Positions 48,701 to 53,100 of a stretch of DNA of 64,000 bases are shown piece after piece. This DNA is from Somniosus microcephalus (lineage: Eukaryota). The stretch lies in NCBI GenBank assembly GCA_052327205.1, contig CM126230.1, positions 16,740,001 to 16,804,000 of the forward strand, given 5' to 3'. The translations under genes were made by a program, and so were the position numbers. Position 1 is the first letter of the stretch, and each line of letters opens with the position of its first letter. The notes under the pieces were generated by a model. The model did no database searches and was not told where the DNA came from. It worked only from the letters and a program-made list of their open reading frames with translations.

Positions 48701-49739
48701 TGTCAGAGCTGCATGAGTCGATTAGTGCACTCAAAATGTGTCCATTTACCGAAACCTTCGTGGCTGCATGGGACAGGCTTTGGGGAAAAACAACTGTGAT
48801 GGGAGGAGGAGCAGTTTTACCCTTGACAGTTGTAACCTTAGTAGTGGCTCTTGGGGGAGGAGCAGTTTTATAGATAGCAGCTGTAACCTTAGTAGTGGCT
48901 CTTGGGGGAGGAGCGGTTTTATAGGTAGCAGCTGCAAAATGAACAGGGGCTCTTGACTGGTATACCTTAGAAAAGTAACCTTTCTTACTGCAATGATTGC
49001 AGGTTGCGTTACGAGCAGGACAAAATTTCCTAGGAATGCACCTCCATTTCCTTCCAGATTGCCAAGATGCCACTAGGGCAGGGTCGTCATCAGTGAGGGC
49101 TTCTAGGGTAGGGTCATCATCAGCTAGGACAGAGTCGTCATCAGTAAGGGCTTCCGCCCGAGGCCCATTGGAGGAGTCACCAAAAGTGATAGCAGTTGGC
49201 CGTGCACATGGTAAAAGATAGGCATCTGCAATTTTTTTGCTGTCCAGAGAACATGCTTGGTCATAGGCAACTTGTAACTTGAGGGTTTTATTCTCCAACA
49301 GACGCTGGCGTATGAAGGGAGATGCAATTCCATTAATAAAGGAATCACGAATTACCTCCTCCTGGTACTGCTCAGCTGAGACAGCTTTGAGATTACAATC
49401 CTTGCTGAGCCTGCGAAGCATTTGAAGGAATTCGTCAAGTGATACCTCGGGTTGTTGTCGAGTTGTGGCCAGTGGATGCCAAGCAAAAATGTTGTTTCAG
49501 GCCTTAACATATAATTGCTGTAGTATTTGGATAGCGGAGTCACAGTCTACACAATCTTCGATATAGTCAAACACATGAGGGGATACATAATTGGCAAGTA
49601 TCTCTAACTTATCAGGAACATTCTCGCCACACACCCTGAAGAAGTTGCTGAAGGTACGATACCAGTGTTTCCATACCTTAGCAGTTGTAGGTGAATTGGG
49701 GTCCAGGTCAAGACGGGCAGGTTGGAGTCGTTTCTCCAT
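45781..49739 (-). pseudogene. Gypsy gag-pol, disrupted by frameshifts
   Basis: gag MEKRLQPARLDLDP...WKHW, knuckle CNHCSKKGY, PR ALIDSCSSDSFI, RT RLCIDY/FDLKSAYHQ/YRDN, RH CDAS...TDQ, IN HTDLCH...CRIC, IDFKGP, SDRG, NGQVER. Confidence 0.93.
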
Positions 49740-49800
49740 GATGGATTGATTACTACCTCTGGTTCCCTTCTACCGTTTCAGTCATAGCTGTCTGTTCCCA

Positions 49801-49903
49801 AAACATAGAAACATAGAAGCTAGGAGCAGGAGTAGGCCATTCGGCCCTTCGAGCCTGCTCCGCCATTCAATGCGATCATGGCTGATCATCCAAGTTCAGT
49901 ACC
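49801..49903 (-). mobile_element. CR1 3' tail inside the Gypsy 5' leader
   Basis: aaacatagaaacatagaagctaggagcaggagtaggccattcggccc... is the reverse complement of the CR1 tail. Confidence 0.85.
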
Positions 49904-49955
49904 AAGTACCCGGTCCAAAACCACTCAGTGTGGAGCAGCAAACAGTAGATTAAAT

Positions 49956-50182
49956 TGATGTAAGAAAACTACTAGGTACTTGGTCTGAATATTAAACAAG
50001 GCTTTAATCAACTGTTTCACAACATGGAGGTCTAGTTGTCCTTCACTAGATCCTGTTTACAAAATGTCCTGAGCAAGCTGGGACCGTGCCCGAGTATTTA
50101 TACTCTCCCTGGACAGCGCCACCAGCAGGCTGCCCAGTATTATTTCATAGTTATTTCTACATGAATGGCAAGATTCATGTCA
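49956..50182 (-). repeat. 5' LTR of the Gypsy element
   Basis: TG...CA termini, - strand TATAAATA at 50095-50102 and ATTAAA at 50003-50008. Confidence 0.95.
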
Positions 50183-53100
50183 GTAGCATTGCTGGTTAAA
50201 GAGGAGATTAACACAATAGTAAGGAAGGATATCAGCTCTGATGATGTGGAATCTGTATGGGCAGAGCTGAGAAATACAAAGGGGCAGAAAACATTAGTGG
50301 GAGTTGTATACAGACCCCCAAACAGTAATGCTGAAGGTTGGGGATGGCATTAAATGGGAAATTAGAGACGCGTGCAATAAGGGCACAGCAGTTATCATGG
50401 GTGACTTTAATCTACATATAGATTGGGCTAACCAAATTAGTAACAATACTGTGGAGGAGGAATTCCTAGAGTATATACGGGATGGTTTCCTGGACACTAA
50501 TGTCAAGGAACCAACTAGAGATCAGGCCATCTTAGACTGGGTATTATGTAATGAGAAAGGATTAATTAGCAATCTTGTTGTGCGATGACCCTTGGGGAGG
50601 AGCGATCATAATATGATAGAATTCTTCATTAAAATGGAGAGTGAAGTAGTTGACTCAGAGATTAGGGTCCTGAATTTAAATAAAGGAAACTGCAATGGTA
50701 TGAGGCACGAGTTGGCTAGGATGGATTGGGGAATGTTACTTAAAGGGTTGATGGTGAATAGGCAATGGCAAACATTTAAAGATCGCATGGATGAACTACA
50801 GAATTTGTTCATCCCTGTTTGGCATAAAAATAAAACAAAAAAGGTGACTCAACCGTGGCTAACAAGGGAAATTAGGGATAGCATAAGATCCAAGGAGAGG
50901 TCATATAATTTGGCCAGAAAAAGCAGCAAACCTGAGGATTGGGAGCAGTTTAAGATTCAGCATAGGAGGACAAAGGGATTAATTAAGAGGGGGAAAATAG
51001 ATTATGAGAGTAAGCTTTCAGGGAACATAAAAACTGACTGTAAAAGCTTCTATAGATATGTGAAGAGAAAAAGATTGGTGAAGTTAAGCGTAGGTCCCTT
51101 GCAGTCAGAATCAGGGGAATTTATAATGGGGAACAAATAAACGGCAGACCAATTAAATACATACTTTGGTTCTGTCTTCACAAAGGAGGACACAAATAAC
51201 CTCCTTGAGATGTCGGGGAACATAGGGTCTAATGAGAGGGAGGAATTGAATGAAATCAGTATTTGTAGGGAAATGGTGTTAGGGAAATTGACGGGATTGA
51301 AGGCCGATAAATCCCCAGGGCCTGATAATCTACATCCTAGGGTACTTAAGGAAGTGGCCCTAGAAATAGTAGATGCATTGCTGGTCATCTTCCAAAATTC
51401 TATAGACTCTGGAACAGTTCCCATGGATTGGAGGATAGCTAATGTAACCCCACTATTTAAAAAAGGTGGTAGAGAGAAAACGGGGAATTCTAGACTGGTA
51501 AGCCTGACATCGGTATCTGGGAAAATGCTGGAGTCCATTATAAAAGATGTAATAGCAGAGCACTTGGAAAACCGTGACGGGATCGGACAAAGACAACATG
51601 GATTTACAAAAGGTAAATCATGCTTGACTAATCTACTGGAATTTTTTGAGGATGTAACTGGTAGAATAGATAAGGGAGAACCAGTGGATGTGATGTATTT
51701 GGACATTCAGAAGGCTTTTGATAAGGTCCCGCATAAGAGATTAGCATGCAAAGTTAAAGCACACGGGATTGGGGGTAAGGTACTGTATTGGATTGAGAAT
51801 TGGTTGGCAGACAGGAAGCAAAGAGTTAGAATAAACGGGTCTTTTTTCGAGTGGCAGGCAGTAACTAGTGGGGTACCGCAGGGATTGGTGCTAGGACCCC
51901 AGCTATTCACAATATATATAAATGATCTAGACGAGGGAACTAGATGTAATATCTCCAAGTTTGCAGACGACACAAAGCTGGCTGGGCGTGTGTGCTGTGA
52001 GGAGGATGCAGAGAAACTCCAGTATGATTTGGACAGGTTGGGTGATTGGGCAGATGCATGGCAAATGCAGTATAATGTGGATAAATGCGAGGTTATCCAC
52101 TTCAATGGCAAAAACAGGAAGACAGATTATTATCTGAATGGCAATAGATTGGGAGAAGGGGAAGTGCAACGAGACCTGGGTGTCTTGTGCACCAGTCACT
52201 GAATGTAAGCATGCAGGTGCAGCAGGCGGTTAAGAAGGCAAATAGTATGTTGGCCTTCATAGCGAGAGGATTTGAGTACAGGAGCAAGGATGTCTTGCTG
52301 CAGTTGTACAGGGCCTTGGTGAGACCACACCTTGTGTGCAGTTTTGGTCACCTTATCTGAGGAAGGATGTGCTTGCCATGGAGGGAGTGCAGCGAAGATT
52401 CACCAGGCTGATACCTGGGATGGCAGGAATGACGTATGAGGAGAGATTGGGTCGATTGGGCTTATACTCGCTGGAGTTTAGAAGAATGAGAGGGGATCTC
52501 ATTGAAACTTATAAAATTCTAAAAGGACTAGACAGACTAGATGCAGGAAGGATGTTCCCAATGGTGGGGGAGTCCAGCACCGGGGTCACAGGCTAAGGAT
52601 AAGGGGTAAGCCATTTAGGACAGAAATGAGGAGGAATTTCTTCACCCAGAGAGTGGTGAACCTGTGGAATTCTCTACCACACAAGGCAGTTGAGGCCAAT
52701 TCATTAAATATATTCAAGAAGGAGTTAGATATATTTCTTAAGGCTAAAGGAATCAAGGGATACGATGAGAAAGCAGGTACTGAATTTGGATGATCAGCCA
52801 TGATCTCATTAAATGGCAGAACAGTCTCGGGCCGAATGGCCTACTCCTGCTCCTATCTTCTATGTCTATGTTTATATTCTATACCTCGGGATAAAACTAG
52901 AATTCCATTAGCTTCGTTTTTTTTACAGCCTTATCAACCTGTGGTGCTGCCTTAATGTCCTGTGGACCGGTGACCCAAATCCCTCTGCTCTTCCCCAGCA
53001 CCGAGCCTACTTCCATTCAGAGTATAATTACTGCTGTTCTCTTTTACCAAAATGTATCACCTCACACTTATTCTTCCGTATCTCAGATTTTACAAGTGGA

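Follow-up and report, generated by a model that had tools for sequence, protein, structure and literature searches.

The window, i.e. the whole 64,000-nucleotide stretch analyzed here (Somniosus microcephalus, assembly GCA_052327205.1, contig CM126230.1, positions 16,740,001 to 16,804,000), carries on its minus strand a 4.6-kb Ty3/Gypsy LTR retrotransposon (Table 1). The element has a pair of TG...CA LTRs, a 5-bp target-site duplication, and a polypurine tract, as expected of this group, and the domain order protease–RT–RNase H–integrase is that of Gypsy elements. Among solved structures, the RT of Ty3 is the closest. The copy is decayed. Its gag-pol frame is disrupted by an in-frame stop ∼80 codons into gag and by several frameshifts, and the RT active-site motif is altered. 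A 117-nt insertion (49921-49805), which begins 19 nt downstream of the primer site, is private to the window copy. It matches the end of a neighboring LINE at 52776-52865, and we take it to be of the CR1 type.

The LTR element itself sits inside a CR1-type LINE (45155-45552 and 50183-52865) of opposite orientation, with endonuclease-like ORF pieces in the flank on one side and RT-like pieces on the other. The spacer between gag and protease contains tandem 51-nt and 21–30-nt repeats (48802-48954 and 49073-49154). Directly upstream of the TATA box, at 50111-50128, lies a motif that resembles the CTCF consensus; CTCF-like motifs also occur in the LTRs of unrelated Gypsy families of the same genome (L252, L258, L260, and L202). 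Elsewhere in the window, a plus-strand ORF piece (39128-39469) resembles the Myb/SANT-like protein of Harbinger-type transposons.

Table 1. Features of the LTR retrotransposon, in window coordinates
Feature	Position	Strand	Remarks
5' LTR (TG...CA, 227 nt)	49956..50182	-	216/228 identical to 3' LTR
3' LTR (228 nt)	45553..45780	-	segment copy at 45614-45600; no primer site downstream
Target-site duplication GCTAC, 5 bp	50183..50187	-	partner at 45552-45548
Polypurine tract	45781..45795	-	–
gag-pol (gag, protease, RT, RNase H, integrase)	46070..49739	-	broken ORF
Secondary insertion: 3' end of a presumed CR1-type repeat, 117 nt, short tandem tail, 8-nt duplication	49805..49921	-	foreign to the element
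Non-tRNA primer-binding site	49940..49954	-	position-8 mismatch private to window copy
One-base spacer A between LTR-terminal CA and primer site	49955..49955	-	1 nt in 26/27 families
First part of loop, starts GCC	49976..50002	-	predicted bulged hairpin directly after predicted cut
LTR segment pairing with primer site, candidate self-primer 3' end	50003..50017	-	12-nt core 50014-50003; ATTAAA 50008-50003 at end
Predicted transcription start GCTCAG	50069..50074	-	28 nt past first T of TATA box; from spacing rule and sushi-like control
TATA box TATAAATA	50095..50102	-	TATAAA 50102-50097; 89 nt before A at position -11 of segment

On the minus strand, the 5' LTR ends in CATCA and is followed by a single A (49955) and by the primer site TTTAATCTACTGTTT (49954-49940). 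A segment of the same LTR, AAACAGTTGATTAAA (50017-50003), is the reverse complement of this site at 14 of 15 positions. This arrangement, first reported in a preliminary description of the locus, was reproduced here, and 14/15 is not reached in any of 5000 dinucleotide-shuffled versions of the window LTR. In a sister LTR, the match is perfect over 15 nt, whereas perfect matches of at least 13 nt occurred in 0/20000 shuffles. The duplex lies 1 nt from the LTR end, a geometry that is compatible with minus-strand priming, as had been proposed. The segment copy reported for the 3' LTR is also present, with coordinates one base off the earlier figure (Table 1). When the region 50075-49900 is folded freely, the duplex does not form (z = −0.84); this fold includes the mismatch and part of the insertion.

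We searched the 6.4-Gb genome for further copies of the window family. The LTR query gave 3761 first-look candidates, of which 40 were scored. The same non-TGG type of site is found in 29/29 sister copies chosen by gag alone and likewise in 29/29 copies chosen by LTR plus site, none of which starts with TGG; the two sets share 7 loci, and some loci are segmental duplicates. Because all of the gag-chosen sisters carry the non-TGG site, nothing has been deleted in the window copy, and the earlier statement that the primer position lacks a TGG-type tRNA site extends to each of these sisters (TGG-type start in 0/29).

The length of the duplex varies by subfamily, being 12 or 15 nt in the window family and 13, 14, or 15 nt in family F28. 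The 15-nt pairing first described thus stands for the window copy, whereas the core that is constant in the family comprises only 12 nt and positions 13–15 vary by subfamily. Pairing is kept by compensatory change, both at position 8 and through the family-specific segments described below. In 46 copies of the family, the LTR/site combination at position 8 is T/A in 32, C/G in 9, T/G (wobble) in 4, and C/A in 0, the window copy being the one case of T/T. This covariation is weak by itself, since it probably reflects a single subfamily event and a CpG is involved.

A broader comparison started from 89 metagenome or MAG-contig loci, of which 51 include the gag start and 50 of these also upstream DNA. 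Searched with no preset motif, 42 of the 50 loci have a perfect inverted repeat (at least 10 bp) at the primer position; the other eight are three mismatched copies of repeat-bearing families and five loci without a recognizable LTR end. Grouped by eye, the loci represent 26 families, or 27 with the window family. Perfect pairing spans positions 1–11 in all 27 and includes position 12 in 25, position 13 in 23, position 14 in 17, and position 17 in 8, counts that are due in part to selection, as we took the longest repeat and did not use three imperfect copies to represent their families. The primer site begins 1 nt past the CA in 26/27 families, with the LTR end backed by a paired LTR in about nine of them and taken from the CA elsewhere.

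Two more families of the same genome (40 loci) self-pair likewise, as do two divergent elements, L144 and L107, so that the total comes to 31 families. In every one of them, the site pairs perfectly over 11–18 nt with a segment of its own LTR, the sequence differing from family to family, and in none does it start with TGG. TGG-type (tRNA-primed) loci of the same genome served as a negative control and show self-pairing of at most 5 nt (20/20). Protein relatives of the clade occur in crustaceans, insects, a soft coral, and cartilaginous fish; the viral contigs searched contained no relatives. Contigs from bacterial MAG records (L141–L147 and L149) hold eukaryote-type LTR retrotransposons, which are probably host contamination, and several 4-kb contigs (L061, L107, L141, L142, and L144) are whole elements in circularly permuted form.

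The decay of the window copy and its insertion 19 nt downstream of the site would fit a coincidental match or the loss of a tRNA site from that copy. Both versions are refuted by the shuffles (0/5000 and 0/20000), the 29/29 gag-chosen sisters, and the 31 families, which leave this explanation a practically negligible probability. The site is a clade-wide trait.

Cellular RNAs were also considered as primers. The tRNA comparison gave at best 8/12 matches to the primer site, within a set of just four distinct tRNA sequences (Cys and Lys), the tRNAs retrieved being almost all of one isotype, and Rfam gave no match at E ≤ 1 in 49700-50250. The site changes family by family together with the family's own LTR, which argues against a shared cellular RNA as the primer. 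The same observation weighs on the idea that the duplex only hides the poly(A) signal of the 5' LTR while a cellular RNA or some other route primes, as does the Rfam result. This idea draws on the segment carrying AATAAA or ATTAAA in 19/31 families (counted by eye) and on the downstream partner being exclusive to the 5' LTR. However, the duplex is formed without a hexamer in the other 12/31 families, and masking does not need a duplex 1 nt past the CA, yet this position is kept in 26/27 families. We therefore regard masking without self-priming as highly improbable. The ATTAAA noted earlier in the pairing segment is indeed there, but the hexamer is dispensable in the clade, and with only 19/31 families bearing it, poly(A) masking is not the core function of the pairing. 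Two of the families, L095 and L107, keep a duplex of 14–15 bp whose LTR segment lacks a poly(A)-like hexamer, and they should be useful for separating priming from poly(A) masking. As judged from the sequence comparisons, priming by the element's own RNA is very likely.

The place of the primer within the RNA can be approached through the spacing of the TATA box. In the window family, TATAAA lies 89–91 nt before position −11 of the segment in 40/44 copies, and in two other families of the same genome, which belong to another subclade, it lies 74–75 nt before −11 in 39/40 loci. For comparison, we used six sushi-like elements of the same genome found by PF24626 (four with paired LTRs, two without a usable pair), which represent one or two families only. 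Three of these elements have a perfect 11-nt self-primer, and in three, TATTTAAG is found exactly 30 nt before the primer. One sushi-like family (L202, L204, L205, and L207) displays a textbook 11-nt self-primer 30 nt past a TATA-like box; it is young, since one copy has identical LTRs.

By the usual TATA spacing, transcription of the self-pairing elements is inferred to start ∼45–60 nt before the segment. The preliminary description had put the segment ∼50 nt past the TATA-predicted start; the distance now stands at ∼55 nt and is backed by three families and the sushi-like control from the same genome. Because TATAAA is 74–91 nt away, as against 30 nt in the sushi-like control, the primer is probably internal to R, a placement that we favor modestly. 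Moreover, the pairing runs past 11 nt and fades gradually across families, which suggests that the bases upstream of the core belong to the RNA.

As in Tf1, transcription could instead start at or just before the segment, with an initiator at AGT, so that the first 11–18 nt of the RNA are the primer and the TATA box is unused or serves another transcript. The minimum duplex is exactly 11 nt, positions −11/−10 are mostly AG (A in 20 and G in 24 of 27 families), and the metagenome/MAG consensus around −11, TTAGTT, resembles an initiator. A conserved TATA is absent from the 26 metagenome/MAG families; TATAWA is found anywhere upstream in 6/26, at scattered positions, and one of these six cases, at −32/−34, would suit a start at the segment. 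A short capped primer would also solve the termination of the plus strand. These points have to be set against the TATAAA kept at 74–91 nt in three families of two subclades, where the sushi-like control has 30 nt, and against the pairing beyond −11 in most families, which often ends on a pyrimidine. A start at the segment is thus rather unlikely in our view, and it may apply to some families and not to others. The AG at −11/−10 was also considered as a splice acceptor and dropped, as it is lacking in at least seven families and the window family has no pyrimidine tract.

Two raw RNA-seq runs, which carry the species label of one of the two best match sources, were compared with a sister copy. 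Their reads extend over the LTR and through the primer site. Among the matches listed, there is neither a pile of read starts or ends in the LTR nor a poly(A) loose end, and many reads stop at the LTR edge, as expected of solo or 3' LTRs.

The loop that follows the segment is conserved at its start. It opens with a purine, C, C, and T in 25, 24, 23, and 24 of 27 families, respectively. When the stem is counted from the first loop base, its length summed over families is 115, compared with 77.7 ± 5.6 in shuffles that kept the four opening bases (0/2000 shuffles). In the window family, the strict junction stem has just 2 bp and the fold gives a bulged stem; the enrichment is one across families. 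In the model, this junction stem and the primer duplex would be stacked on each other where the cut is predicted.

The preliminary description had considered two sources of the primer, an internally cleaved 5' R and the RNA's own 3' end. The TATA spacing favors the former, and the latter is the less likely. A 3'-end primer would come from the segment copy in the 3' LTR of the genomic RNA, or from short transcripts that terminate within the 5' LTR, and would be trimmed to the edge of the duplex. It would account for a segment that is found in both LTRs and has A as its final base in 27/27 families, and trimming to the duplex edge would yield the same 3' end. Yet the 5' copy, just 24–68 nt away from the site, would be expected to pair earlier, trimming of the genomic 3' end would remove the R stretch that is required for strand transfer, and the conservation of a stem where the loop begins better suits a cut at the junction. 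Taken together, this makes priming from a 3' end improbable.

We return to the internally cleaved 5' R. Here, the LTR segment would fold back on the primer site during transcription, and, on the model of Tf1, a cut by the element's RNase H between AAA and RCC would leave a 3'-OH; an RNase H domain, which the predicted cut would need, is present. The cut would free a capped leader of ∼55–70 nt, which would resemble a tRNA in being long and paired at its 3' end only. Strong-stop DNA would then copy the loop of 24–68 nt, and strand transfer would proceed through the part of the 3' LTR that lies between RCC and the poly(A) site. In hexamer-bearing families, pairing would, as a side benefit, also conceal the poly(A) signal of the 5' LTR; the 3' LTR would be exempt since no primer site lies downstream of it. 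One point counts against a long, unmodified primer: plus-strand copying has to stop where the primer site ends, and no means for this is evident. On balance, we lean toward a capped fragment of the element's own RNA, probably freed by a cut inside R, as the primer of reverse transcription. The complete scenario is put forward more tentatively, at somewhat under an even chance: a widespread animal Gypsy clade would make its substitute for a tRNA by a cut inside R directly past the poly(A) signal, producing a capped leader of 55–70 nt and a duplex that silences the poly(A) signal of the 5' LTR. If true, this would be a mode of priming distinct from tRNA priming and from the first-11-nucleotide primer of Tf1.

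A large clade of animal Gypsy elements that does without a tRNA and is abundant in the genome would broaden the known range of self-priming. Such a clade would presumably escape control by tRNA supply and by tRNA fragments, and its primer site will be overlooked by annotation tools that require a tRNA match. An internal primer would mean that RT can use a long capped RNA, cut from the very template it copies, and that priming is coupled to the choice of the poly(A) site. The mechanism of self-priming itself is already known, with experimental evidence in fission-yeast Tf1 (PMC7175516) and predictions for its relatives and for one plant copia lineage (PMC6317226); new here are the TATA contrast within one genome and the junction stem. 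No description of the clade's primer site was found in the literature searched, and an earlier remark on the site in subscription-era papers or Repbase is quite possible. Within the portions covered, PMC6934838 and PMC2864245 do not describe this site, PMC3601003 models Mag LTRs and mentions hairpin priming for some chromoviruses only, and the term "PBS" is absent from the main text of PMC6238403. A search of the Atlas gave no name for the clade.

A quick RT–RNase H tree of 49 rows unites all self-complementary families in a single clade (SH-aLRT 100) on a long branch, nested neither among the sushi-like nor among the TGG-type shark elements; the outgroup rows L264 and L270 were dropped because they have no RT, and the sushi-like references are unnamed shark elements retrieved through PF24626. 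The RT of the clade is 28–33% identical to that of sushi-like and of tRNA-primed shark elements (28–29% to the sushi-like ones). With BEL RTs as the root, neither a sister relationship to the sushi-like elements (p-AU 0.28) nor one to the TGG-type shark elements (p-AU 0.37) is rejected. The clade appears to be separate from the Tf1/sushi group though working like Tf1, and a common and an independent origin are both compatible with the tree. The label "Mag-like", given earlier on the basis of gag, does not hold as a statement of nesting, given the RT identity of just 28–33% to tRNA-primed shark elements and the long branch of its own. The reported lack of a chromodomain is borne out more widely: neither a chromodomain nor SH3_Tf2-1 is present in the window pieces, in 5/5 full-length relatives, or in 120 listed relatives.

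Among animal elements, Cigr-1 offers a lead only: it has one ORF of ∼1200 codons and LTRs of ∼245 bp, reminiscent of the 1175–1204-amino acid relatives of the clade. The Cigr-1 clade and the Mag lineage of animal Gypsy elements (PMC6238403) are likewise compact and without a chromodomain. Self-priming outside the Tf1/sushi group has been predicted from sequence for the plant TAR/Houba/Osr-1 lineage of Ty1/copia elements, which share a self-complementary site with the window clade (PMC6317226). In contrast to the window clade, these unrelated elements have the copia domain order and plant hosts.

The closest functional parallel is provided by Tf1 and Tf2 of Schizosaccharomyces pombe, Tj1, Tosmo/Tcry, and the vertebrate sushi elements, which also lack a tRNA site and have instead a site that pairs with their own LTR near the end of U5. 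In Tf1, the RNA's first 11 bases are the primer, released by an RNase H cut between bases 11 and 12 (PMC7175516 and PMC4600332), and Tf2 transcripts initiated downstream of the LTR are unable to support reverse transcription (PMC5341516). Shared features are a duplex of at least 11 bp, flanking RNA structure, and a 1-nt spacer past the CA, which is seen in the sushi-like control. Unlike the Tf1/sushi group, the window clade forms a separate RT–RNase H clade devoid of a chromodomain or SH3_Tf2-1, its duplex extends over 11–18 bp rather than the first 11 nt, and its TATA box lies 74–91 nt instead of 30 nt upstream. The poly(A) hexamer is usually part of the segment, whereas it is found ∼80 nt further downstream in the sushi-like control. 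Finally, as far as the primer-site folds and the junction stem examined here are concerned, the stem of the window clade is local and situated at the predicted cut, whereas the Tf1 primer is part of a "pretzel" structure of three duplexes (PMC10085805).
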